Of a stretch of 64,000 nt of DNA, positions 7,045 through 27,915 are shown in pieces. The notes below the pieces were generated by a model. It saw nothing but the letters and a program-made list of their open reading frames with translations, did not search any database and was not told the origin of the DNA. The first letter of the stretch is position 1, and each line of letters starts with the position of its first letter. The translations under genes and the position numbers were made by a program. The stretch is from Laetmonice hystrix (lineage: Eukaryota), in contig OZ249436.1 in assembly GCA_965235115.1 (NCBI GenBank), positions 1,242,001 through 1,306,000 of the forward strand. The letters run 5' to 3'.

Positions 7045-7190
7045 GTAAGTCACGTTCGTTTCAAGGTTTACCGGAATAAATGTTTCTCACCCGTTTCTTT
7101 CCGTTCCTCCTCTACGTTTAACGTTTTACATTGTGTCCTGAATACATCAGGAAACAGATGTATCGTCACGTGCGTGAGAAAGCTATACTT

Positions 7191-8169: not shown

Positions 8170-8802
8170 GGATCGGAAAGTCCTCCCTGAGCCGGTGCGA
8201 GTCTTACAGGGTCTCTGGCATTGATTGTGTTAGGATGGGAAAGTCGGCCCAGATGGTCCCTGAGCCCGTGCAAGTCTTACAGGGTCTCTGGCATTGATTG
8301 TGTTAGGATCGCAGAAAGTCGGCCCAGATGGTCCCTGAGCCCGTGCGAGTCTTACAGGGTCTCTGGCATTGATTGTGTTAGGATCGCGGAAAGTCGGCCC
8401 AGATGGTTCCTGAGCCCGTGCGAGTCTTACAGGGTCTCTGGCATTGATTGTGTTAGGATCGCGGAAAGTCGGCCCAGATGGTCCCTGAGCCCGTGCGAGT
8501 CTTACAGGGTCTCTGGCATTGATTGTGTTAGGATCGCAGAAAGTCGGCCCAGATGGTCCCTGAGCCCGTGCGAGTCTTACAGGGTCTCTGGCATTGATTG
8601 TGTTAGGATCGCGGAAAGTCGGCCCAGATGGTTCCTGAGCCCGTGCGAGTCTTACAGGGTCTCTGGCATTGATTGTGTTAGGATGGGAAAGTCGGCCCAG
8701 ATGGTCCCTGAGCCCGTGCGAGTCTTACAGGGTCTCTGGCATTGATTGTGTTAGGATCGCGGAAAGTCGGCCCAGATGGTTCCTGAGCCCGTGCGAGTCT
8801 TA
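8170..8802. repeat. 73/75-bp satellite, left segment (~8.5 copies)
   Basis: Unit GATTGTGTTAGGAT(GG/CGCG)GAAAGTCGGCCCAGATGGTCCCTGAGCCCGTGCGAGTCTTACAGGGTCTCTGGCATT; interrupted at GTC-TTA by a transposon. Confidence 0.97.
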
Positions 8803-10059
8803 TGGGTCAGATCCACTAAGGCGACGACATTCGCATTGAAATTCTCATGCGACGCATGCGATCATGCGAATGTTGCGACTGATGCGAATCCTATGCGAAT
8901 GGCAAATCCACTACAGCGATTCATGCGAATTTCTCTTGCGAATGGCAAATCCACTACAGCGATTCATGCGAATTTCTCTTGCGAATGGTAAATCCCCTTC
9001 AGCGATTCATGCGAATTTCTCACGCGAATGTCTGAGCGTATTGCTAGACGAGTTAGGTTTATTTTCAATGGGCAATTTCTTTTACCCTTTAAAATTATTC
9101 GTGACCACCCGGGCCTAATATTCGCCCATCAACATGGAGATACCGATAGATAGATAGTTTGCCTTCTCTCTTATCAGACTGTATGGAATTGTATCAGATA
9201 TATGATAATATGATAATATGTATAAACAATGCATGTTTTATTTTACTAAATTTTACGTACACAAAGCAAAATGTACTGATGAACGTCTTTATCAAGAATA
9301 TTTTGCCTCTGCCCTTTGAAGACAACGATCTTGATACAACAACTAACCTGTGGAAATATAAGGTAACTTCTAAATCTTTCTAACAAAACTTTCCAGGCCG
9401 TGTTGGCTCTGACGTATCCACGAGATGCTTCGGTGACTAACGTTAACAATATTACAGATCGGGTTTAACTTGAAAAGGATTTACAGAAGTCATCTCGTAT
9501 TATCATATCATAGAGTCCTTACACCTTTTACGAAAGACAAACCTGTGACATAGAATTAATAAGTTCTATGTGTGTTACGAAATGTCCTTGTTACTCATCT
9601 CTGACAGGCTCTGGGACATCCTACTCCCAATATAACACGTATACTTTCTTTTTTTAAACAGAATTGCCGAAATCGTCTGATTCATATGTTCTTTATGTAT
9701 GAACTAATAAACTAGATCTCAAAAACAAAATGGTTCTCCCATCACATTATAATCTATCATTGCAAACATAGATTTTCCTAAGTCGGTCAAACAAAAAAAT
9801 GGTTAAAAAAGAAACAAGAGTCGGCAAATATTTTCACCCCTGACACAAGTTAAAAAATACAGAATGGGCTTCAAAAAAATGACCATATCGCTTGGATTAT
9901 GCTGCAATAAAATTGTACACGAGAAACCCGATACATCCGGGGTATGACCATATGCATACCAACAAAATGGATGAAATATCTAACATCCAACAGTCAAGAA
10001 ACCCTCATAAGCTAACATAAACAAGGAAATCCTGTAGCCATATCAGATATATTTGGATT

Positions 10060-10575
10060 TCAATCTTTCTTAGGCCAGTCGCCCTCCATTGCATCTAGTG
10101 CGACAGTATCTACATATATTTTGAAGCGCTCAGCCACCCTGGGTTGCATTGCGCTAACCTTTCCCGCCAGAAGTCGTGACCAGACAACATTTTTGTCTTG
10201 TTCTGAAGAAGACACTTTGGCTTTGGAATAGGATTCAGCTATGGCTGAAACAGAATTCGTCAGTTGTGTGAACATGTGTTTCTTTTCTTCCTCCTCCTTC
10301 CGTGCGTAACCCTTTTTCTTAGCTTTAGGACATGGGGGCTCCTCTTCCTCGTCAGATCCTAAGTCGAGATCCACCATCTCAGGAAACCTCTTCTTCATAA
10401 GGGGATTCTTGCCTGATTTCAGAGTCAATCTGTCTGTTTTGCGTGGTGGGGTTGGATCTTCCCTGATGGGTTCAGGCCAATCGTTATCTGTATTCTCTTG
10501 TTCCTCATCTGTCTCCTTGTCCAAGTTAGCTGATTCATGAGCCTTCTTCTTTATGGTCTGGGCAGCTGGATAGGT
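10060..10575 (-). CDS. MADF protein exon 3: acidic/basic linker and BESS-like C-terminal motif
   Basis: TAG acceptor. Reads TYPAAQTIKKKAHESANLDKETDEE... in frame with ORF 10060-10524 and ends DKNVVWSRLLAGKVSAMQPRVAERFKIYVDTVALDAMEGDWPKKD*. Spliced CDS 352+197+516=1065 nt (354 aa), no internal stop. Confidence 0.85.
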   Translation of the reverse strand, partial: TYPAAQTIKKKAHESANLDKETDEEQENTDNDWPEPIREDPTPPRKTDRLTLKSGKNPLMKKRFPEMVDLDLGSDEEEEPPCPKAKKKGYARKEEEEKKHMFTQLTNSVSAIAESYSKAKVSSSEQDKNVVWSRLLAGKVSAMQPRVAERFKIYVDTVALDAMEGDWPKKD

Positions 10576-11165
10576 CTACACGAGCAGAAAAAATACATAA
10601 CATCAATGCTACGAAAATATTACCAATCAAAAAATGAAGTGCAGTTTTTCCTGAAATTCACAATTTTCTCACTTCCATATCACTGTGATGAACAATGTTA
10701 CCTTGACCAGCTTTCATGACGAAAGATAATATGCACAGGGGTCCATATTATTTGGGTAATTTCAAAGACAAAGACCGTCCGTAAGGGAGGGGGGGGGGGG
10801 GGTCCAACTACTATGTTAGCGAATGGGTGCAGTAATCTTGGGGCTGGGGTTTAATTCCAGTATACAGGACTATACAACTTTTTTCTTTCCGGACATTCTC
10901 AAAGTAACCGGGTTACGCCAGATTTCCGTGCATTTAAAAATAGAAATCACTCACTCGCTCAGTGGAATTGATGAATAACAGAATAGCAATGCTCCTATCA
11001 AATGACCATTCATCTGACTACTATTGGAACAGTAGCGAAATTATATTTTCAGGAATGGATATTAATAAGGCGATTGTACAAACAGTTAATTTGGCGTGAA
11101 TAATATTATGCTTTAAGGTGATATAGGTCTAATATATGGTACAGGATTTATATTATTTCACTCAC

Positions 11166-11362
11166 CATCACCTTCCTAGGGCTCTTTCGTTTCAGGTTAC
11201 TGACACTTTCCCGCGACTTTATATGGCAGCGCAAAAATGAACACATATCCAGGATATCACACTGCCTGGGTGTTAGTCTATCTGAGCCAGATCCTGATGG
11301 AATGTAGGCCAGTTTGGTGAATGTTGTTCTTAATGATCTCAGGTGAAGCTCGATATCTTTTA
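11166..11362 (-). CDS. MADF protein exon 2 (absent from the ORF track)
   Basis: Polypyrimidine tract + CAG acceptor. Translates VKDIELHLRSLRTTFTKLAYIPSGSGSDRLTPRQCDILDMCSFLRCHIKSRESVSNLKRKSPRKVM (MADF helix 3, SGSG, xxFL). 197 nt, donor GTGAGT, phase 0; frame-compatible with exons 1 and 3. Confidence 0.88.
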
Positions 11363-11550
11363 CTGAAAAAAAGAATGAGAATATTAAATAACATATAAAC
11401 TCGCGCCAAGTGGGGGGGGGGGGGGGGCTGCGCTAGGGGGGGGCCTCCAACTGAAAATGTTTGGAAATATAAAATGCTATTTCCCGGCTTCTCAGCATCA
11501 GACTGAAGAGCTTTCAGTGCCGACCTTTTGGTAAAAATTAATGTAATAAT

Positions 11551-11819
11551 CAGTGGATGACCCAGAGGGGCTTGGCCTTAGATTTTCCTTTTATGTATGA
11601 AGATGCATTAGTATGTATACAGTTCCAATGAAATCATGCCGAGCGGAGCAAAGCTAAACAATTTTTAGGTGCCCCCCCAACCCCCTTATCAAAATCCTAG
11701 ATTCCCCCACTGATTAATGCTTATTAGAAAGGGGGGATGGCCGAGAGCAGGTGGAATGGTCGAGAGCAGGGGGGGGGGGGGTCACGACCCCAAAACCCCT
11801 CCCCCTGGATCCACCCCTG
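11551..11819. mobile_element. Degenerate small MITE remnants in intron 1 of the MADF gene
   Basis: CAGTGG...CCACTG bracket (11551-11712) and a second end ...CCCCCTGGATCCACCCCTG with G/C tracts; no clean TSD. Confidence 0.4.
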
Positions 11820-12150
11820 TTTACATATTAGGCTACATGTAGGGGGGTGGGCGGGTAGTGCCTCCTGAGCATGTATAACAGGTATCAATAACAGTGTTAA
11901 TGTTGGGGTATCAACATGCAGGGGCCTACCTCCAAATTTCATAGGCCTATATTATCTATGTGCCCTATTTCATAAGAATGCGTTGATCTTCCATGTACCC
12001 GATAGCCTAGTAGACTAATGAATAGGCCTAGATCTATTCTCTGACTCTTTTTTTATTAATCATATTTGGCGTTTACAATTAGGCCTAGGCCTCTATGGGT
12101 TAATAAAGTAGGCCTACCAACAGGGCATAGAGCGAGGCCTATCAACTTAC

Positions 12151-12502
12151 CATCCATCTCCAGGATAGCGGAGAACCTTTTCACCGCAGCAGCACGTTTA
12201 ACCGTGTTCCGGTAATCTTTTGACGTAGAATCGTAAAGGTGAGCCTCTTCTGCCCAAAGTTCACATAAGCGGTGCTCCCTCTCACGGGTCCACCGGCGGC
12301 TTGTCCCGGGGCTTTGTGCCCCGACATCCTCAAATGTGTCTTCATAATCAATCCGATTAGAAATCATGCCTTGGGTAGGTGTCTTGGGTAGGTGTGCATC
12401 TTTCGGTGTGCATCTTTCGGGTTCCGCGGTTTGTTTTTTGGGGGGTGTGACCTCTTCCCTCGCCTTTGATTTGCCTTGTCTTCTTACATTTTTTCGCACC
12501 AT
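12151..12502 (-). CDS. MADF/Myb-SANT DNA-binding protein, exon 1 of 3 (Harbinger-associated)
   Basis: ATG at 12502; WTREREHRLCELWAEEAHLYDSTSKDYRNTVKRAAAVKRFSAIL matches the MADF N-terminal pattern. 352 nt, donor G|GTAAGT at 12150, phase 1. Confidence 0.88.
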
Positions 12503-12815
12503 CTTGCTAGCCGGGTCCCCAGCTCTATATTAACTTCGTATATAGAGCCTGGCGTAGGCCAATCGAAGCAAGCGTTGTGATTGGCCCATCGAAAACATGG
12601 ACGCAAACGAGGTATAGTTCCGTACCCCCCGTATTTCTCCAACAAGACACAAATATTTTCGTCAATCCCTTTAAAATACAAGTGTTAAATGTCCTCGCTT
12701 TTCTGGATGTAAACATAGCGTCACCAGTCCCCACACCTGCAACGGTCTGCATACGCAGTCGCATGTTGGCCACTCCCGGCCACGCTCCAAGCAGAAGTCG
12801 ATCACTCTGTTAACG

Positions 12816-12872
12816 CCGGAGGCGGAAGTGATTAGCTCCGAGGCGGAAGTGCTTGGAGACCAACACTTCCGT
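12816..12872. promoter_or_regulatory. Three ETS-like CGGAAGTG motifs ~320-370 bp upstream of the MADF ATG
   Basis: GAGGCGGAAGTG twice plus inverted CACTTCCG; a CCAAT and an AT-rich TATA-like stretch lie nearer the ATG. Function is inferred. Confidence 0.35.
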
Positions 12873-13441
12873 TTTACAGCTTTCTGTTAGCCATCACCGG
12901 GCCTAACATCAAGCGGATGCGTATGGTAAGGCACCGGGGACCAGGCTAACCATCTTGCTTGTTGGTTTGTGCGCGATCCCAGATTGATCACATGACCGAC
13001 CCGTACCACCTAGTGTCAATCTCGATAACTAAAAACGCCCCCCCCCCCGACGGCAAAGTTGGCTATGCGACCACAAGCGAGTCATGCGAAAATTTCTAAA
13101 CGTTTGAATATTTTCGCTTTGCATTCTCATGGCCACGCGAATTCCCATGCGACATGAAAATCTCAACCGAACGCCTGATCCACTACAGCGATTTGCGCGC
13201 CGACAGCTCATGAGATCATGCGAATTCGGCGCGACGGCAAATTCGCAAGAAAAAGTACACATTTACGTTGGGATTTTGTCGGTTGGCATTCTCATGGCCA
13301 TGCGAATTCGCATGAGATCGTGCGAATCTCATGCGAACACCTGATCCACTACAGCGAAATTCGCGCCGACAGCTCATGAGATCATGCGAATTCGGCGCGA
13401 CTGCAAATTCGCAAGAAATTCGGCTTAGTGGATCTGGCACT

Positions 13442-16400
13442 TTACAGGGTCTCTGGCATTGATTGTGTTAGGATGGGAAAGTCGGCCCAGATGGTCCCTG
13501 AGCCCGTGCGAGTCTTACAGGGTCTCTGGCATTGATTGTGTTAGGATCGCGGAAAGTCGGCCCAGATGGTTCCTGAGCCCGTGCGAGTCTTACAGGGTCT
13601 CTGGCATTGATTGTGTTAGGATGGGAAAGTCGGCCCAGATGGTCCCTGAGCCCGTGCGAGTCTTACAGGGTCTCTGGCATTGATTGTGTTAGGATGGGAA
13701 AGTCGGCCCAGATGGTCCCTGAGTCCGTGCGAGTCTTACAGGGTCTCTGGCATTGATTGTGTTAGGATAGGAAAGTCGGCCCAGATGGTCCCTGAGCCGG
13801 TGCGAGTCTTACAGGGTCTCTGGCATTGATTGTGTTAGGATGGGAAAGTCGGCCCAGATGGTCCCTGAGCCCGTGCGAGTCTTACAGGGTCTCTGGCATT
13901 GATTGTGTTAGGATCGCGGAAAGTCGGCCCAGATGGTCCCTGAGCCCGTGCGAGTCTTACAGGGTCTCTGGCATTGATTGTGTTAGGATGGGAAAGTCGG
14001 CCCAGATGGTCCCTGAGCCCGTGCGAGTCTTACAGGGTCTCTGGCATTGATTGGTGTTAGGATCGCGGAAAGTCGGCCCAGATGGTCCCTGAGCCCGTGC
14101 GAGTCTTACAGGGTCTCTGGCATTGATTGTGTTAGGATCGCAGAAAGTCGGCCCAGATGGTCCCTGAGCCCGTGCGAGTCTTACAGGGTCTCTGGCATTG
14201 ATTGTGTTAGGATGGGACAGTCGGCCCAGATGGTCCCTGAGCCCGTGTGAGTCTTACAGGGTCTCTGGCATTGATTGTGTTAGGATGGGAAAGTCGGCCC
14301 AGATGGTCCCTGAGCCCGTGCGAGTCTTACAGGGTCTCTGGCATTGATTGTGTTAGGATCGCGGAAAGTCGGCCCAGATGGTTCCTGAGCCCGTGCGAGT
14401 CTTACAGGGTCTCTGGCATTGATTGTGTTAGGATGGGAAAGTCGGCCCAGATGGTCCCTGAGCCCGTGCGAGTCTTACAGGGTCTCTGGCATTGATTGTG
14501 TTAGGATGGGAAAGTCGGCCCAGATGGTCCCTGAGTCCGTGCGAGTCTTACAGGGTCTCTGGCATTGATTGTGTTAGGATAGGAAAGTCGGCCCAGATGG
14601 TCCCTGAGCCGGTGCGAGTCTTACAGGGTCTCTGGCATTGATTGTGTTAGGATGGGAAAGTCGGCCCAGATGGTCCCTGAGCCCGTGCGAGTCTTACAGG
14701 GTCTCTGGCATTGATTGTGTTAGGATCGCGGAAAGTCGGCCCAGATGGTCCCTGAGCCCGTGCGAGTCTTACAGGGTCTCTGGCATTGATTGTGTTAGGA
14801 TCGCGGAAAGTCGGCCCAGATGGTCCCTGAGCCCGTGCGAGTCTTACAGGGTCTCTGGCATTGATTGTGTTAGAATGGGAAAGTCGGCCCAGATGGTCCC
14901 TGAGTCCGTGCGAGTCTTACAGGGTCTCTGGCATTGATTGTGTTAGGATCGCAGAAAGTCGGCCCAGATGGTCCCTGAGTCCGTGCGAGTCTTACAGGGT
15001 CTCTGGCATTGATTGTGTTAGGATCGCAGAAAGTCGGCCCAGATGGTCCCTGAGCCCGTGTGAGTCTTACAGGGTCTCTGGCATTGATTTGTGTTAGGAT
15101 GGGAAAGTCGGCCCAGATGGTCCCTGAGCCCGTGCGAGTCTTACAGGGTCTCTGGCATTGATTGTGTTAGGATGGGAAAGTCGGCCCAGATGGTCCCTGA
15201 GCCCGTGCGAGTCTTACAGGGTCTCTGGCATTGATTGTGTTAGGATGGGAAAGTCGGCCCAGATGGTCCCTGAGCCCGTGCGAGTCTTACAGGGTCTCTG
15301 GCATTGATTGTGTTAGGATGGGAAAGTCGGCCCAGATGGTCCCTGAGCCCGTGCGAGTCTTACAGGGTCTCTGGCATTGATTGTGTTAGGATGGGAAAGT
15401 CAGCCCAGATGGTCCCTGAGCCCGTGCGAGTCTTACAGGGTCTCTGGCATTGATTGTGTTAGGATCGCGGAAAGTCGGCCCAGATTGTCCCTGAGCCCAT
15501 GCGAGTCTTACAGGGTCTCTGGCATTGATTGTGTTAGGATAGGAAAGTCGGCCCAGATGGTCCCTGAGTCCGTGCGAGTCTTACAGGGTCTCTGGCATTG
15601 ATTGTGTTAGGATGGGAAAGTCAGCCCAGATGGTCCCTGAGCCCGTGCGAGTCTTACAGGGTCTCTGGCATTGATTGTGTTAGGATCGCGGAAAGTCGGC
15701 CCAGATGGTCCCTGAGCCCGTGCGAGTCTTACAGGGTCTCTGGCATTGATTGTGTTAGGATCGCGGAAAGTCGGCCCAGATGGTCCCTGAGCCCGTGCGA
15801 GTCTTACAGGGTCTCTGGCATTGATTGTGTTAGGATCGGAAAGTCGGCCCAGATGGTCCCTGAGCCCGTGCGAGTCTTACAGGGTCTCTGGCATTGATTG
15901 TGTTAGGATCGCAGAAAGTCGGCCCAGATGGTCCCTGAGCCCGTGCGAGTCTTACAGGGTCTCTGGCATTGATTGTGTTAGGATAGGAAAGTCGGCCTAG
16001 ATGATCCCTGAGTCCGTGCGAGTCTTACAGGGTCTCTGGCATTGATTGTGTTAGCATCGCGGAAAGTCGGCCCAGATGGTCCCTGAGCCCGTGTGAGTCT
16101 TACAGGGTCTCTGGCATTGATTGTGTTAGGATCGCGGAAAGTCGGCCCAGATGGTCCCTGAGCCCGTGCGAGTCTTACAGGGTCTCTGGCATTGATTGTG
16201 TTAGGATCGGAAAGTCGGCCCAGATGGTCCCTGAGCTCGTGTGAGTCTTACAGGGTCTCTGGCATTGATTGTGTTAGGATGGGAAAGTCGGCCCAGATGG
16301 TCCCTGAGCCCGTGCGAGTCTTACAGGGTCTCTGGCATTGATTGTGTTAGGATGGGAAAGTCGGCCCAGATGGTCCCTGAGCCCGTGCGAGTCTTACAGG

Positions 16401-19400
16401 GTCTCTGGCATTGATTGGTGTTAGGATCGGGGAAAGTCGGCCCAGATGGTCCCTGAGCCCGTGCGAGTCTTACAGGGTCTCTGGCATTGATTGTGTTAGG
16501 ATGGGAAAGTCGGCCCAGATGGTCCCTGAGCCCGTGCGAGTCTTACAGGGTCTCTGGCATTGATTGTGTTAGGATCGGAAAGTCGGCCCAGATGGTCCCT
16601 GAGCCGGTGCGAGTCTTACAGGGTCTCTGGCATTGATTGTGTTAGGATGGGAAAGTCGGCCCAGATGGTCCCTGAGCCCGTGCGAGTCTTACAGGGTCTC
16701 TGGCATTGATTGTGTTAGGATGGGAAAGTCGGCCCAGATGGTCCCTGAGCCCGTGCGAGTCTTACAGGGTCTCTGGCATTGATTGTGTTAGGATCGGAAA
16801 GTCGGCCCAGATGGTCCCTGAGCCGGTGCGAGTCTTACAGGGTCTCTGGCATTGATTGTGTTAGGATGGGAAAGTCGGCCCAGATGGTCCCTGAGCCCGT
16901 GCGAGTCTTACAGGGTCTCTGGCATTGATTGTGTTAGGATGGGAAAGTCGGCCCAGATGGTCCCTGAGCCCGTGCGAGTCTTACAGGGTCTCTGGTATTG
17001 ATTGTGTTAGGATCGCGGAAAGTCGGCCCAGATGGTCCCAGAGCCCGTGCGAGTCTTACAGGGTCTCTGGCATTGATTGTGTTAGGATGGGAAAGTCGGC
17101 CCAGATGGTCCCTGAGCCCGTGCGAGTCTTACAGGGTCTCTGGCATTGATTGTGTTAGGATCGGGAAGTCGGCCCAGATGGTCCCTGAGCCGGTGCGAGT
17201 CTTACAGGGTCCCTGGCATTGATTGTGTTAGGATGGGAAAGTCGGCCCAGATGGTCCCTGAGCCCGTGCGAGTCTTACAGGGTCTCTGGCATTGATTGTG
17301 TTAGGATAGGAAAGTCGGCCCAGATGGTCCCTGTGCCGGTGCGAGTCTTACAGGGTCTCTGGCATTGATTGTGTTAGGATCGCGGAAAGTCGGCCCAGAT
17401 GGTCCCTGAGCCCGTGCGAGTCTTACAGGGTCTCTGGCATTGATTGTGTTAGGATCGCGGAAAGTCGGCCCAGATGGTCCCTGAGCCGGTGCGAGTCTTA
17501 CAGGGTCTCTGGCATTGATTGTGTTAGGATCGCGGAAAGTCGGCCCAGATGGTCCCTGAGCCGGTGCGAGTCTTACAGGGTCTCTGGCATTGATTGTGTT
17601 AGGATCAGAAAGTCGGCCCAGATGGTCCCTGAGCCCGTGCGAGTCTTACAGGGTCTCTGGCATTGATTGTGTTAGGATCGCAAAGTCGGCCCAGATGGTC
17701 CCTGAGCCCGTGCGAGTCTTACAGGGTCTCTGGCATTGATTGTGTTAGGATGGGAAAGTCGGCCCAGATGGTCCCTGAGCCCGTGCGAGTCTTACAGGGT
17801 CTCTGGCATTGATTGTGTTAGAATGGGAAAGTCGGCCCAGATGGTCCCTGAGCCCGTGCGAGTCTTACAGGGTCTCTGGCATTGATTGTGTTAGGATCGC
17901 GGAAAGTCGGCCCAGATGGTCCCTGAGCCCGTGCGAGTCTTACAGGGTCTCTGGCATTGATTGTGTTAGGATGGGAAAGTCGGCCCAGATGGTCCCTGAG
18001 CCCGTGTGAGTCTTACAGGGTCTCTGGCATTGATTGTGTTAGGATGGGAAAGTCGGCCCAGATGGTCGCTGAGCCCGTGCGAGTCTTACAGGGTCTCTGG
18101 CATTGATTGTGTTAGGATCGCGGAAAGTCGGCCCAGATGGTCCCTGAGCCCGTGCGAGTCTTACAGGGTCTCTGGCATTGATTGTGTTAGGATGGGAAAG
18201 TCGGCCCAGATGGTCCCTGAGCCCGTGCGAGTCTTACAGGGTCTCTGGCATTGAGTGTGTTAGGATGGGAAAGTCGGCCCAGATGGTCCCTGAGCCCGTG
18301 CGAGTCTTACAGGGTCTCTGGCATTGAGTGTGTTAGGATGGGAAAGTCGGCCCAGATGGTCCCTGAGCCCGTGCGAGTCTTACAGGGTCTCTGGCATTGA
18401 TTGTGTTAGGATCGCAGAAAGTCGGCCCAGATGGTCCCTGAGCCCGTGCGAGTCTTACAGGGTCTCTGGCATTGATTGTGTTAGGATGGGAAAGTCGGCC
18501 CAGATGGTCCCTGAGCCGGTGCGAGTCTTACAGGGTCCCTGGCATTGGTTGGTGTTAGGATGGGAAAGTCGGCCCAGATGGTCCCTTAACCCGTGCGAGT
18601 CTTACAGGGTCTCTGGCATTGATTGTGTTAGGATCGCGGAAAGTCGGCCCAGATGGTCCCTGAGCCCGTGCGAGTCTTACAGGGTCTCTGGCATTGATTG
18701 TGTTAGGATCGCGGAAAGTCGGCCCAGATGGTCCCTGAGCCGGTGCGCGTCTTACAGGGTCTCTGGCATTGATTGTGTTAGGATGGGAAAGTCGGCCCAG
18801 ATGGTCCCTGAGCCCGTGCGAGTCTTACAGGGTCCCTGGCATTGATTGTGTTAGGATGGGAAAGTCGGCCCAGATGGTCCCTGAGCCCGTGCGAGTCTTA
18901 CAGGGTCTCTGGCATTGATTGTGTTAGGATCGCGGAAAGTCGGCCCAGATGGTCCCTGAGCCCGTGCGAGTCTTACAGGGTCTCTGGCATTGATTGTGTT
19001 AGGATGGGAAAGTCGGCCCAGATGGTCCCTGAGCCCGTGTGAGTCTTACAGGGTCCCTGGCATTGATTGTGTTAGGATGGGAAAGTCGGCCCAGATGGTC
19101 CCTGAGCCCGTGTGAGTCTTACAGGGTCTCTGGCATTGATTGTGTTAGGATGGGAAAGTCGGCCCAGATGGTCCCTGAGCCCGTGTGAGTCTTACAGGGT
19201 CTCTGGCATTGATTGTGTTAGGATAGGAAAGTCGGCCCAGATGGTCCCTGAGCCGGTGCGAGTCTTACAGGGTCTCTGGCATTGATTGTGTTAGGATGGG
19301 AAAGTCGGCCCAGATGGTCCCTGAGCCCGTGTGAGTCTTACAGGGTCTCTGGCATTGATTGTGTTAGGATCGCGGAAAGTCGGCCCAGATGGTCCCTGAG

Positions 19401-20917
19401 CCCGTGCGAGTCTTACAGGGTCTCTGGCATTGATTGTGTTAGGATGGGAAAGTCGGCCCAGATGGTCCCTGAGCCCGTGCGAGTCTTACAGGGTCTCTGG
19501 CATTGATTGTGTTAGGATGGGAAAGTCGGCCCAGATGGTCCCTGAGTCCGTGCGAGTCTTACAGGGTCTCTGGCATTGATTGTGTTAGGATGGGAAAGTC
19601 GGCCCAGATGGTCCCTGAGCCCGTGCGAGTCTTACAGGGTCTCTGGCATTCATTGTGTTAGGATGGGAAAGTCGGCCCAGATGGTCCCTGAGCCCGTGCG
19701 AGTCTTACAGGGTCTCTGGCATTGATTGTGTTAGGATCGCGGAAAGTCGGCCCAGATGGTCCCTGAGCCCGTGCGAGTCTTACAGGGTCTCTGGCATTGA
19801 TTGTGTTAGGATGGGAAAGTCGGCCCAGATGGTCCCTGAGCCCGTGCGAGTCTTACAGGGTCTCTGGCATTGATTGGTGTTAGGATCGCGGAAAGTCGGC
19901 CCAGATGGTCCCTGAGCCCGTGCGAGTCTTACAGGGTCTCTGGCATTGATTGTGTTAGGATCGCAGAAAGTCGGCCCAGATGGTCCCTGAGCCCGTGCGA
20001 GTCTTACAGGGTCTCTGGCATTGATTGTGTTAGGATAGGAAAGTCGGCCCAGATGGTCCCTGAGTCCGTGCGAGTCTTACAGGGTCTCTGGCATTGATTG
20101 GTGTTAGGATCGCAGAAAGTCGGCCCAGATGGTCCCTGAGCCCGTGCGAGTCTTACAGGGTCTCTGGCATTGATTGTGTTAGGATCGCGGAAAGTCGGCC
20201 CAGATGGTCCCTGAGCCCGTGCGATTCTCACAGGGTCTCTGGCATTGATTGGTGTTAGGATGGGAAAGTCGGCCCAGATGGTCCCTGAGCCCGTGCAAGT
20301 CTTACAGGGTCTCTGGCATTGATTGTGTTAGGATCGCGGAAAGTCGGCCCAGATGGTCCCTGAGCCCGTGTGAGTCTTACAGGGTCTCTGGCATTGATTG
20401 TGTTAGGATGGGAAAGTCGGCCCAGATGGTCCCTGAGCCCGTGCGAGTCTTACAGGGTCTCTGGTATTGATTGTGTTAGGATCGCGGAAAGTCGGCCCAG
20501 ATGGTCCCTGAGCCCGTGCGAGTCTTACAGGCTCTCTGGCATTGATTGTGTTGGGATCGCAGAAAGTCGGCCCAGATGGTCCCTGAGCCCGTGCGAGTCT
20601 TACAGGGCCTCTGGCATTGATTGTGTTAGGATCGGAAAGTCGGCCCAGATGGTCCCTGAGCCCGTGCGAGTCTTACAGGGTCTCTGGCATTGATTGTGTT
20701 AGGATCGCGGAAAGTCGGCCCAGATGGTCCCTGAGCCCGTGTGAGTCTTACAGGGTCTCTGGCATTGATTGTGTTAGGATGGGAAAGTCGGCCCAGATGG
20801 TCCCTGAGCCCGTGCGAGTCTTACAGGGTCTCTGGTATTGATTGTGTTAGGATCGCGGAAAGTCGGCCCAGATGGTCCCTGAGCCCGTGCGAGTCTTACA
20901 GGCTCTCTGGCATTGAT
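13442..20917. repeat. 73/75-bp satellite, right segment (~100 copies)
   Basis: Same unit as 8170-8802; highly homogeneous, with multi-monomer block duplications. Confidence 0.97.
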
Positions 20918-21764
20918 TCGTGTTTTGATGGTCACATTTCACGACTACCTGATGCGCAAGGAGCTATTCAAATGTCGGTATTGATTATGGCCTGTTGAGC
21001 CTTTCGTACCTCGCCAACACCAATATACGGTCAGGCGGGATTCCGCGGTGGGACAGCCAGGAATCCCCGTCTCTACCTCAGCTGTCCGCAGTATTGATAC
21101 AGGCTCAGTAATTCATCACGAATCGACTGGTGAAACTGACTCCAAGGCCAAGGCGGGAACTATAAAATAACCAATCTGAATATAGCGGGAATCTAGACAC
21201 TGATCGCAATGCAGATACCCACATCGCCCCAACCATAACGCTGCAGCACGTAGAACGAAGGATTGACGTGCAATGCTCCTCCCGCCTAGTCCCTGGTTCT
21301 ATCATGCTGCAGTAATATTAGAGAAGAGATTAATGATATTGATATTCGATAGAATTGACTTCTGTTTAATTCGGTGATTTTGTACTCAGGTTACAAGGAA
21401 GGACTCTATCCCCACCGTGTACGGGCAGAATGCTCAAACCGCTCATATTTGAGAAGTTTAGAGAAACTCATACGAAACCCTACTCGATTCTAACCCCGGC
21501 CAGAAGATAACTGCTGATTTATACCAACTCTGCCGTCGCTACCTTCCTAAAAAAACGTTTTCCCGAAGAAGTAGGAGAATGGTTCCTCCACTCACGCAAT
21601 ATCTCCCCAGATAAGACCCAGGCTGTTCAAGAATGGGGTACGAAATCCATCTGTCACTGGCTACAGAAAGAATTACATGACGATTTTCTGGGGTAAAAGT
21701 TATAGATATAAGGCTCAACCCAGGTAACTTTCACATTGTACCGAAAGGGAACATTGTAATGTAG

Positions 21765-24420: not shown

Positions 24421-25547
24421 TGAAAGACGACAAATAGTCCTAATATACCGATAGTAACAACAGTTGACATAGCAGTTGCGTACGGTAACTGAACCATCGC
24501 TCACTCTCATTGCTTATTGTGGCCCAGCGTCTGACGGTCACCACCACAAACACCCGTGGCGTCCGTGGCTAATTAAAGCTGACGAGATGACGGGCTCCCT
24601 CACATCGGCTGAAGATGGAGGACTTGAAAGGATTGGTGGCCGCACGAGTTATAGTGAGAGTATGCATACCGGTCCTCTACAGGCAAACCGTCGGAAACGT
24701 CAACTGTTGCGTTATGAATTGCTTCTGGATAGTCAGCTGAAGCCGTAGCTCTGGATGCAGGCCTGCAGGTCAAGACACCAGGCCTCCATAGGGATTTCAT
24801 ATTAATGTGTTTGCTTATATTTTCGATCTGTTTTTCCAATATTTACATAGGAGATTGAATTGTAAATTAAGCCACTGGCACAGAACTTTTAGCATGCAGG
24901 TCACGTTACGAATGGCCTTCTAGACGATAGAGCCAAGTTTGACTATTGATTTTTAATTCCTTCATAACATGTACGGCTAATATAGCATGGAAAAGAGCGT
25001 TGGCATTGTGTACTCTCACTTGACAACATGGAGCATGATCTACAGTAGCGGATTACAATGGAAAAATCCGATATTATCTTCACTATGCAATGGACAGTGA
25101 TCGCACAATTATTAGGTATATAATAAATATTATATAAAGATGCCAACTTTATTCGGATACTTGGCTTGAGAAAAACATATCTATTATCATATCAGGCAGT
25201 GATCTTATAATATCTAGGTCGTGACATTGCCATAGTAACTCAGTTCTGACAGTGACCTTCCACTTGGACTTTTAACCCAATCCAGTAAGCAAATGATGAT
25301 AATGATAAATAAATAATGATAAAATAAAACCGTTGGGAGGTGGGGGGGGGGGATGCTGTTCCGGCTAGATATGTCCGAACGGCTAGTTATGTCCGAGAGG
25401 ATATATGTCCGAAAATATCAGCTAGATATGTCCGGTAATCCGGATCTGTCCGCAAATATCAGATAGATATGTCCGGTAATCCGGATCTGTCCGCAAATAT
25501 CAGATAGACATGTCCGGTAATCCGGATATGTCCGCAAATATCAACTA

Positions 25548-25850
25548 GAGGGTAGGGTTCACTAGTCCGAAAGTTCACTAGTCCCAGGGTTCACTAATCC
25601 GAAGTGGGCAATAGGCAACCCTAACCCAAAAAAAAACAAATATAACTAACCCTAAACCTAACCTTAACTCTAACCCATATAGGGGATTGGTCTGTCGCAC
25701 CACTGGGCTGTCGGACTAACCCCCCCTGAGGTTAACACCATATTTGCCCCATGTTCCCCTGCCATTGCCTACTGTCAACTTCGGACTAGTGAACCCTCGG
25801 ACTAGTGGCCCCCCACTGGTGGCCCCCATGGACTAGTAGGTAGTTCCCCA
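25548..25850. mobile_element. Nested MITE with inverted GGGTTCACTAGTCCGA subrepeats and a CCCTAA-like core
   Basis: GTTCACTA(G/A)TCC x3 on the left and GGACTAGT x3 on the right; centre CCCTAACCC..CTAACCCTAAACCTAACCTTAACTCTAACCC. Interrupts the 41-bp repeats of the host element. Confidence 0.65.
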
Positions 25851-26001
25851 GCTGGATGTGTCCGGTAATCTGGATGTGTCCGCAAATGTCAGCTAGATAT
25901 GTCCGGTAATCTGGATATGTCCGCAAAAGTCAGCTAGATGTGTCCGCTACCGGACACATCTAGCTGATATTTGCGGACATATCCATTTCTTCGGACATAT
26001 G

Positions 26002-27147
26002 TAGCTGATGTTTGCGGACATATCTCCTATCGGACATAACTAGCCGTTCGGACGTATCTAGCTGATGTTTGCGGACATATCTCCTATCGGACATAACTAG
26101 CCGTTCGGACATATGTAGCTGATGTTTGCGGACATATCTCCTATCGGACATAACTAGCCGTTCGGACATATCTAGCTGATGTTTGCGGACATATCTCCTA
26201 CCGGACATCACTAGCCGTTCGGACATATGTAGCTGATGTTTGCGGACATATCTCCTATCGGACATAACTAGCCGTTCGGACATATCTAGCTGATGTTTGC
26301 GGACATATCTCCTACCGGACATCACTAGCCGTTCGGACATATCTAGCTGATGTTTGCGGACATATCTCCTATCGGACATAACTAGCCGTTCGGACATATC
26401 TAGCTGATGTTTGCGGACATATCTCCTACCGGACATAACTAGCCGTTCGGACGTATCTAGCTGATGTTTGCGGACATATCTCCTATCGGACATAACTAGC
26501 CGTTCGGACATATCTAGCTGATGTTTGCGGACATATCTCCTATCGGACATAACTAGCCGTTCGGACATATCTAGCTGATGTTTGCGGACATATCTCCTAT
26601 CGGACATAACTAGCCGTTCGGACGTATCTAGCTGATGTTTGCGGACATATCTCCTATCGGACATAACTAGCCGTTCGGACATATCTAGCTGATGTTTGCG
26701 GACATATCTCCTATCGGACATAACTAGCCGTTCGGACGTATCTAGCTGATGTTTGCGGACATATCTCCTATCGGACATAACTAGCCGTTCGGACGTATCT
26801 AGCTGATGTTTGCGGACATATCTCCTATCGGACATAACTAGCCGTTCGGACATATCTAGCTGATGTTTGCGGACATATCTCCTATCGGACATAACTAGCC
26901 GTTCGGACGTATCTAGCTGATGTTTGCGGACATATCTCCTATCGGACATAACTAGCCGTTCGGACGTATCTAGCTGATGTTTGCGGACATATCTCCTATC
27001 GGACATAACTAGCCGTTCGGACGTATCTAGCTGATGTTTGCGGACATATCTCCTATCGGACATAACTAGCCGTTCGGACATATCTAGCTGATGTTTGCGG
27101 ACATATCTCCTATCGGACATAACTAGCCGTTCGGACGTATCTAGCCG
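26002..27147. repeat. Tandem array, 57-bp unit, ~20 copies (inside the foldback element)
   Basis: TAGCTGATGTTTGCGGACATATCTCCTATCGGACATAACTAGCCGTTCGGAC(A/G)TATC; source of the 415-aa repeat ORF. Confidence 0.97.
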
Positions 27148-27335: not shown

Positions 27336-27915
27336 ACTATGAAGACCATTAGGTGACGTATACCGCCACTCGCCCCGCTACTCGCCCCGCCACTCGCCCC
27401 GCTCCTCGCCACTCGCCCCGCTCCTCGCCCCGCTTCTCGCCCCGCCACTCGCCCCGCCACTCGCCCCGCCACTCGCCCCGCCACTCGCCCCGCTACTCGC
27501 CCCGCTACTCGCCCCGCTACTCGCCCCGCTCCTCGCCCCGCTCCTCGCCCCGCCACTCGCCCCGATCCTCGCCCCGCTCCTCGCCCCGCCACTCGCCCCG
27601 CCACTCGCCCCGCTACTCGCCCCGCTACTCGCCACTTGGCCCGCTACTCGCCCCGCTCCTGCCACTCGCCCCGCCACTCGCCCCGCTAACGCTAACACTA
27701 ACCCTAACCGGCGGGTAGCGGGGCGAGTAGCGGGGTGAGTGGCGAGTAGCGGGGCGAGTGGCGGGGCGAGTGGCGGGGCGAGTGGCGGGGCGAGTGGCGG
27801 GGCGAGTGGCGGGGCGAGTGGTGAGTGGCGAGTAGCGGGGCGAGTGGCGAGTAGCGGGGCGAGTGGCGAGTAGCGGGGCGAGTGGCGGGTGATGTCACCT
27901 TATGGTCTTCATAGT
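27336..27915. mobile_element. Foldback MITE with inverted 12-bp arrays (CTCGCCCCGCCA)n and a telomere-like core
   Basis: Left ACTATGAAGACCATTAGGTGAC..CCGCCACTCGCCCCGC; right GCGGGGCGAGTGGCGG..GTCACCTTATGGTCTTCATAGT; centre GCTAACGCTAACACTAACCCTAACC. Flanks AGGAA/ATGAA could be a decayed 5-bp TSD. Confidence 0.8.

Follow-up and report, generated by a model that had tools for sequence, protein, structure and literature searches.

The 64,000-nt window analysed here (positions 1,242,001 to 1,306,000 of contig OZ249436.1, Laetmonice hystrix assembly GCA_965235115.1) contains a 4.64-kb transposable element of the PIF/Harbinger type (8803-13441), which is inserted in a 73-75-bp satellite between TTA triplets (8800-8802 and 13442-13444). 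It carries a spliced MADF gene, while the DDE_Tnp_4 transposase gene expected of an autonomous PIF/Harbinger element is not in it. The TTA duplication within a satellite monomer, proposed in the initial annotation of this locus, was confirmed, as TTA occupies the insertion position in all 105 satellite monomers that match the search pattern, and the rejoined empty site is identical to the satellite array at 180 of 180 bases. The imperfect 21-bp terminal inverted repeats (TIRs) were confirmed as well (17 of 21 positions agree), and a test of the TIRs and subterminal repeats gave 62 exact matches of the motif against one for the control. The features of PIF/Harbinger elements, namely a T-N-A target duplication, TIRs with subterminal repeats and a first open reading frame (ORF1) of the Myb/SANT (MADF) type, are thus all present. 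Throughout the text, A denotes the MADF-only element type, B the non-coding elements with the same ends, and R a family of two-gene Harbingers (L043 and L055). The genome searched comprises 627 Mb in 35 contigs of one haploid assembly, and the lists of end matches and hits obtained from it are lower bounds. The features of the locus are collected in Table 1.

Table 1. Features of the MADF-only element and of the satellite that surrounds it (positions in the window)
Feature	Positions	Strand	Remarks
Satellite, left part	8184..8802		8.3 copies of the 73-75-bp unit; 8800-8802 is the left TTA
Left TIR	8803..8823	+	Transposase-promoter side; 17/21 in comparison with the right TIR
Left subterminal region	8824..9050	+	43-bp repeats and ATCCACTACAGCGA / CATGCGAA motifs; 96-98% identity to B-element ends
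Putative stub of transposase promoter and start codon	9051..9150	+	Role predicted; homology to B elements stops here; no ORF follows
AT-rich spacer	9151..10059		Present in the three full copies only; no transposase remnant
MADF gene, exon 3	10060..10575	-	Acidic/basic linker and BESS-like C-terminus
MADF gene, exon 2	11166..11362	-	Second half of the MADF domain
MADF gene, exon 1	12151..12502	-	Carries the start codon; first half of the MADF domain (PF10545 positions 1-37 of 84)
Nested 441-bp miniature inverted-repeat transposable element (MITE; 12508-12948) and its 10-bp duplication	12498..12958		
MADF gene, native 5' leader and promoter-proximal part	12959..13082	-	Role predicted; 88-90% identity to B elements
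Right subterminal region	13083..13420		166-bp duplication and the same motifs as on the left
Right TIR	13421..13441	-	MADF-promoter side
Right TTA and remaining satellite	13442..20931		13442-13444 is the right TTA; 101.5 copies

The three minus-strand exons of the MADF gene (12502-12151, 11362-11166 and 10575-10060) join to 1065 nt encoding 354 aa with a single terminal stop, and GT..AG is found at all four splice junctions. Exon 1 alone matches positions 1-37 of the 84 positions of PF10545 (MADF) with an E value of 8e-4 and a score of 20.1 bits, which is below the cut-off of 22 because the intron splits the MADF domain and only half of it was scanned. The Pfam scan of exons 2 and 3 gave no match, and PF02944 (BESS) was not found. 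By language-model features only, the last 96 residues resemble those of BESS-bearing ESM Atlas clusters (0.93, 0.90 and 0.90), in which BESS is present on 11-24% of the members. Exons 1 and 3 gave nothing at E 0.001 in word-index protein searches, and a HMMER search of 1.84 billion representatives gave 24 matches of 28-52% identity, 14 of which were scanned and contained neither MADF nor BESS. Within the genome, all three exons of the gene have homology to ORF1 of two-gene elements. Exon 2 is 39-59% identical to exon 2 of these relatives, intron 1 of L042, L043 and L045 falls at the same codon and in the same phase, and intron 2 is displaced by no more than two codons from its position in L043. 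As the paralogs of the MADF gene are ORF1 genes of two-gene Harbingers, it is the element's own ORF1 and, judging by its sequence, an ordinary one. Both introns contain high-copy repeats (10806-10967 and 11454-11777) common to the three full copies. No splice joint of the gene was found among the joints listed in contigs of three runs from one sample. The subterminal ATCCACTACAGCGA / CATGCGAA motifs are probably binding sites of the MADF protein, and TCCACTAAGSCGA, alongside ATCCACTACAGCGA, may be a candidate motif for binding by the MADF proteins of both A and R.

A separate, high-copy MITE of 441 bp lies 5 bp upstream of the ATG and splits the MADF gene from its promoter. The gene described as intact in the initial annotation is therefore intact with respect to the reading frame only, and the region 12.55-13.0 kb, in which the absence of a transposase was reported and is confirmed here, consists largely of this MITE. 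Its TIR reads TAGCC(G/T)GGTCCCC, and it is flanked by a 10-bp duplication, ACCATCTTGC (12498-12507 and 12949-12958), which includes the start codon. A search with the whole query gave 3650 first-look candidates, and most of the 40 that were scored correspond to the nested MITE. Target duplications of this family are 9 or 10 bp long in 15 of 16 measured copies and 7 bp long in one; presumably, this length indicates a Mutator or AcademH element, although the listings did not confirm it. One copy of the family is nested inside another (L011). The MITE is missing from the sister copies of the window element, and the MITE-free joint 12497-12949 is present in contigs of the three runs. On the coding strand, the native leader is now followed by the duplicated ATG with a frame of 14 codons, then by seven more ATGs, and the real start is reached 451 bases later. 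For this reason, the window copy of the MADF gene is probably impaired, although a TATA-like word near the MITE end may serve as a new promoter instead.

The genome-wide search with the ends, suggested in the initial annotation, revealed two sisters of the window element (4216 and 4199 bp, on C5 and C19), a fourth A locus on C8, of which only the right end and exon 1 remain, and about 30 non-coding elements with A ends. Matches to the left end were found at 34 places (with all 33 candidates scored) and matches to the right end at 44 places (with the best 40 of 46 candidates scored); 20 left-end loci were fetched and analysed, and the remaining left ends were examined separately. The three full copies differ pairwise by 25-27 substitutions over about 4.2 kb (about 0.6%). 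In the C5 copy, the frame is open and the splice sites are intact, whereas the C19 copy is frameshifted by a 13-bp deletion in exon 1. Against both sisters, 14 substitutions and three deletions are private to the window copy; the move previously deduced from the unmutated TTA and satellite monomer, which stand as described, is thus recent only in rough terms. The three full copies occupy unrelated sites, are flanked by T-N-A and have one common transposase-less structure, which indicates that the MADF-only element moved in the transposase-less state and agrees with the earlier proposal that it keeps only the DNA-binding gene and obtains transposase in trans. The comparison of coding changes over the A loci, also proposed earlier, gave 10 non-synonymous changes on 829 sites and 5 synonymous ones on 233 sites (ratio 0.56, p 0.22 against neutrality), so that no selection is detectable among the A copies.

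Besides those of the three full copies, the left ends run into one non-coding B interior or break off. The B core is 2.4-3.5 kb long, often with nested insertions, and the nearest pair of B copies differs at 3 of 2460 bases, which indicates that the machinery moving them worked very recently. A and B show 97% identity over the terminal 240 and 359 bp, the same as B copies among themselves. Over the next 116 and 138 bp, their identity is 84% and 89%, while B copies are there 97-98% alike, and the homology between A and B ends at an ATG on each side.

The search for a transposase by tblastn and hidden Markov models (HMM), with the nearest transposases, revealed no transposase frame or remnant in the three full copies (L001-L003), as the initial annotation had it for the window element, nor in the B core, while the positive controls (L042 and L043) gave 1e-176 or better. 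Among the matches listed, 150 to PF13359 and 147 to the L043 transposase, none lies within 17 kb inward of any of the 34 left and 46 right ends. These lists missed fragments, such as that in L031, and are better at excluding a close relative that is intact than one that has decayed. Several candidates were rejected. The transposase fragment in the B element L031 belongs to a nested, deleted derivative of the R family with its own TIR and TTA/TTA flanks, and a weak DDE match in L041 lies outside the truncated element and represents a different Harbinger clade. Weak tblastn matches to B elements (E 0.1-0.7) came from one wrong-frame peptide. In a 15-kb element on C30, the left end is followed by a retrotransposon-like frame of at least 1168 aa, with no DDE in the 3.9 kb read. 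L054, considered as the cognate partner (56% to the R transposase), has a MADF gene of its own and a frameshift.

Eleven paralogous loci were fetched, and a convergent DDE transposase gene is present in six of them. It is open in the last exon in L042, L043, L055 and L045, decayed in L046 and frameshifted in L054, whereas in the decayed or interrupted loci L056-L058, L088 and L089 no transposase was found in the 6-8 kb read. Family R is represented by L043 (G000:C2:36753230-36758192) and L055 (C10), which are 99.7% identical and are the only two intact two-gene copies of this family among the loci found. Their transposase (PF13359) has an open spliced frame of 416-419 aa, with junctions that are not fixed. 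Both copies are apparently intact, and family R is probably active. In L043, the stops of the convergent genes are separated by 715 bp, and the spacer 9151-10059 of the window element probably corresponds to the 3' untranslated regions of two convergent genes. The transposase of L043 starts 333 bp from the element's end; in the window, an ATG (9134) is located 332 bp from the corresponding end, and its frame stops at once. The TIRs of A and R are identical at positions 10-22, including a side-specific G/C, and differ at positions 1-9. The TIR core, ATCCACTAAGSCGA, occurs 696 times in the genome, largely in MITEs of other families. Tourist-like MITEs of about 190-211 bp with AGGGCC..ATCCACTAAG ends (L061-L071, on C1 and C2) are among these occurrences. 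L088 (G000:C20:11623600-11631400) consists of a tandem 5.6-kb unit in which a frameshifted MADF last exon is separated from an AGGGCC-type TIR by about 430 bp, and which also carries a long reverse-transcriptase-like frame. By these sequence features, it appears to be a second, decayed transposase-less Harbinger derivative, and its existence means that transposase loss recurs. Tandem arrays of Harbinger transposases were observed at G000:C12:27558645-27930344 (more than 20 copies with a spacing of about 13 kb), C1:26032355-26103657 and C11:22361676-22374231.

The triplets that flank the A and B elements are in many cases unequal. The set compared comprised 21 independent two-ended copies, namely 20 of the fetched loci and the C30 element, with L031 and L039 (damaged ends), L040 (no right end) and a duplicate of L030 excluded. 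In 13 of the 21, the flanks are matching T-N-A triplets, and in 8 they are unequal (loci with unequal triplets are L028, L002, L022, L023, L025 and L034). Five copies differ at the middle base only (TAA/TTA, TGA/TCA, TCA/TTA twice and TTA/TCA), and the others are one ACA/TAA and two TAA/TAC. For all five single mismatches to fall at the middle position, the probability under random mutation is 0.004. The original target is readable in five cases. Both flanks equal the target in the window, L030 and L033. In contrast, L028 (G000:C2:19080090-19082695) has flanks TCA and TTA within a 36-bp repeat that reads TAA at 16 of 16 intact junctions, and L025, inserted in an R-family end that reads TAA, has ACA as its left flank. 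Since the flanks of L028 and L025 differ from the target and five of the 21 copies are mismatched at the middle base only, we infer that the A/B family may often ligate donor overhangs into the target in a piggyBac-like manner. The rival explanation, gene conversion between copies across both ends, would have to hold on one matched base.

The published data on mPing and piggyBac bear on this point in two ways. Excised mPing carries donor triplets (PMC11254759; PMC4561436), and in piggyBac asymmetric flanks arise by mismatch repair at non-canonical sites in about 2% of insertions (PMC8717057, citing Li et al. 2013). Against the generality of overhang import, 45 of 46 insertions obtained by free transposition of TCA/TCA-flanked mPing in yeast have TTA or TAA (PMC4561436; PMC11254759), and only one of 11 comparison elements in this genome is asymmetric. 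The comparison elements were 7 readable MITE copies of 12 fetched (five copies with decayed ends were dropped), 3 R-family elements and L042; the asymmetry is not significantly family-specific (5/21 vs. 1/11; Fisher's tests with similar counts, p 0.07-0.29). A literature search, mostly outside subscription journals and supplements, found no report of natural Harbinger insertions with donor-derived middle bases. The flank asymmetry is a more surprising lead than the MADF-only state itself.

Given the observed structure, the copy set and the absence of a transposase, we consider it fairly probable that the window element is a non-autonomous Harbinger formed by internal deletion, with a transposase from a low-copy cognate element that is absent from this haplotype or was lately lost. 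The deletion would have taken out the transposase gene, beginning immediately behind its start codon, and left the convergent ORF1 and both ends in place; this is the simplest history, and the ATG stub sits at the start distance of L043. A MADF protein would bind the subterminal repeats and recruit a DDE transposase made elsewhere, which would cut across the flanking T-N-A triplets and paste the element into another T-N-A, with 3-base donor overhangs sometimes retained to give non-matching "duplications". The same proteins would have moved the approximately 30 B elements. Both proteins are described as needed, with ORF1 binding the ends and recruiting the transposase (PMC13668399, citing Sinzelle 2008; PMC2836001). 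The part of the transposase presumed to bind ORF1 is divided among three exons. From the sequences of the ends and copies, we infer that A and B were probably moved very recently by a MADF protein recognising their common ends and by an outside transposase. A cognate low-copy element would be the most economical source of the latter, and zero copies of such a parent in one haplotype are plausible because family R has only two intact two-gene copies among the loci found. The MADF frame would have survived mostly by inertia, being intact on C5, frameshifted on C19, truncated on C8 and split from its promoter in the window.

Several observations weigh against this history. No cognate transposase, intact or decayed, was found among the best 150 of 720 and the best 140 of 585 matches scored, and contigs of the three runs cross the predicted deletion point unbroken, which is a weak hint that the sample holds no near-identical two-gene parent. 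The drop of identity between A and B behind the terminal parts is unexplained by a simple series of deletions from one parent; the pattern of the ends would rather fit a history in which A and B long depended on one and the same MADF protein, or an exchange of ends. The selection test, with 15 changes, has little power.

Other readings of these data differ mainly in the source of the transposase. The A-MADF protein could act as an adaptor that binds the A/B ends and, with no cognate left, recruits the transposase of another family, for example R, whose two nearly identical copies have an open transposase frame. The identity of A and R TIRs at positions 10-22 would agree with this, as would the conserved terminal sequence of A and B and the fact that A contains the only MADF gene found between these ends. 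In yeast, Ping ORF1 functions with Pong transposase and vice versa (PMC2836001). However, Ping and Pong ORF1 are 62% identical, compared with 33-51% in aligned blocks for the MADF proteins of A and R. The TIR core is found throughout the clade and does not single out R, and TIR positions 1-9 differ. Moreover, only one of the four A loci looks fully competent, with no detectable selection. We regard such recruitment as rather unlikely. Its extended form, in which A and B persist without a transposase of their own by means of the MADF adaptor and a foreign Harbinger transposase that pastes donor 3-base overhangs, so that the triplets would record donor-daughter descent, is doubtful. The initial annotation had also suggested one half of a split two-element system, in which a DDE-only element with the same ends, absent from the assembly, complements the MADF-only one. 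For this there is a precedent in Caenorhabditis inopinata, with many non-coding elements, some MADF-only ones and one intact DDE-only locus (PMC13668399), and a haploid assembly could lack a partner present in a single copy. Nevertheless, no DDE-only element was found among the 34 left and 46 right ends, the left-end matches being three A elements and otherwise B-type or broken off. The nearest listed transposase match is 17 kb inward, the five TIR-only matches that were fetched have no transposase within 2.5 kb, and the L031 fragment belongs to the nested R-family derivative. The suggestion thus found no support here, and we consider a split system improbable.

The earlier idea of a vehicle spreading MADF-BESS genes, that is, of a captured host transcription-factor gene or an incipient domesticated gene, could draw on the MADF and BESS-like architecture, on two copies whose frame is open and whose splice sites are canonical, and on the high-copy repeats that occur in introns, and not in exons, of all three full copies. 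It is largely refuted by the two-gene paralogs, as the nearest of these are ORF1 genes of Harbingers with the same orientation and intron 1, and we find it very improbable. The TIRs and target triplets are intact, the loci are dispersed young copies and not fixed orthologs, and the copies decay, one being frameshifted, one truncated and one interrupted. The coding relatives are indeed ordinary two-gene Harbingers, as would be expected if the element were a single recent deletion product, a possibility raised in the initial annotation; it is, however, not a single deletion product. Origin by internal deletion, with the transposase of a low-copy cognate, remains the reading that we prefer.

The remaining part of the 64,000-nt window is crowded with unrelated tandem arrays (periods of 16 to 96 bp) and contains palindromic pairs, e.g., 25362-27145 and 27363-27889. 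An exon of a rhodopsin-family receptor extends from 6600 to about 7045-7079 (PF00001, E 8e-11), with a GT donor at its end; the satellite and the Harbinger element probably sit in an intron of this receptor gene, although a motif search gave no further receptor exon in the window.

Together with the second, decayed example, the presence of a further, independent family in this 627-Mb animal genome suggests that two-gene Harbingers repeatedly give rise to MADF-only derivatives. Whether ORF1 by itself determines end specificity and can borrow foreign transposases could readily be tested in this system. The unequal triplets constitute natural evidence on how Harbinger ends are joined to the target, which matters for Ping/Pong-based genome engineering, and they imply that annotation filters which require perfect duplications overlook a considerable fraction of the young copies (8/21 here).

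Canonical two-gene PIF/Harbinger elements (Ping/Pong, Harbinger3_DR and family R) share with the window element the 3-bp T-N-A target, short TIRs, subterminal repeats and a Myb/SANT-type ORF1 directed inward from one end with the same intron 1, while the DDE_Tnp_4 gene is deleted in the latter. The piggyBac transposon represents a different superfamily, with hairpin chemistry and a 4-bp TTAA target. It is nonetheless similar in that a mismatch between overhang and target is repaired separately on each side, which results in unequal flanks (PMC8717057). The excision of mPing (PMC4561436; PMC11254759) is alike in the staggered cut across the flanking triplet, the donor triplets on the excised element and the flexible middle base; however, its donor triplets were seen at Cas9 breaks, whereas natural insertions here appear often to keep donor middle bases. 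Trans-mobilised MADF-only Harbingers were published in 2026, and that report calls the separation of MADF and DDE not previously reported (PMC13668399). The window element is a real, young MADF-only Harbinger and a further case of this configuration, without a DDE-only partner. In that report, Harbinger-1M_cIno of C. inopinata is represented by 19 MADF-only elements, 14 of them intact, together with one intact DDE-only locus, and the MADF genes are expressed. Both systems have an intact MADF gene, no DDE gene and a TWA-type target, are mobile in this state and are outnumbered by non-coding derivatives with the same ends. The case described here has four MADF loci, one of them fully intact, and no DDE locus within the ends; its non-coding partners are 2.4-3.5 kb long, whereas those of Harbinger-1M_cIno are short MITEs.

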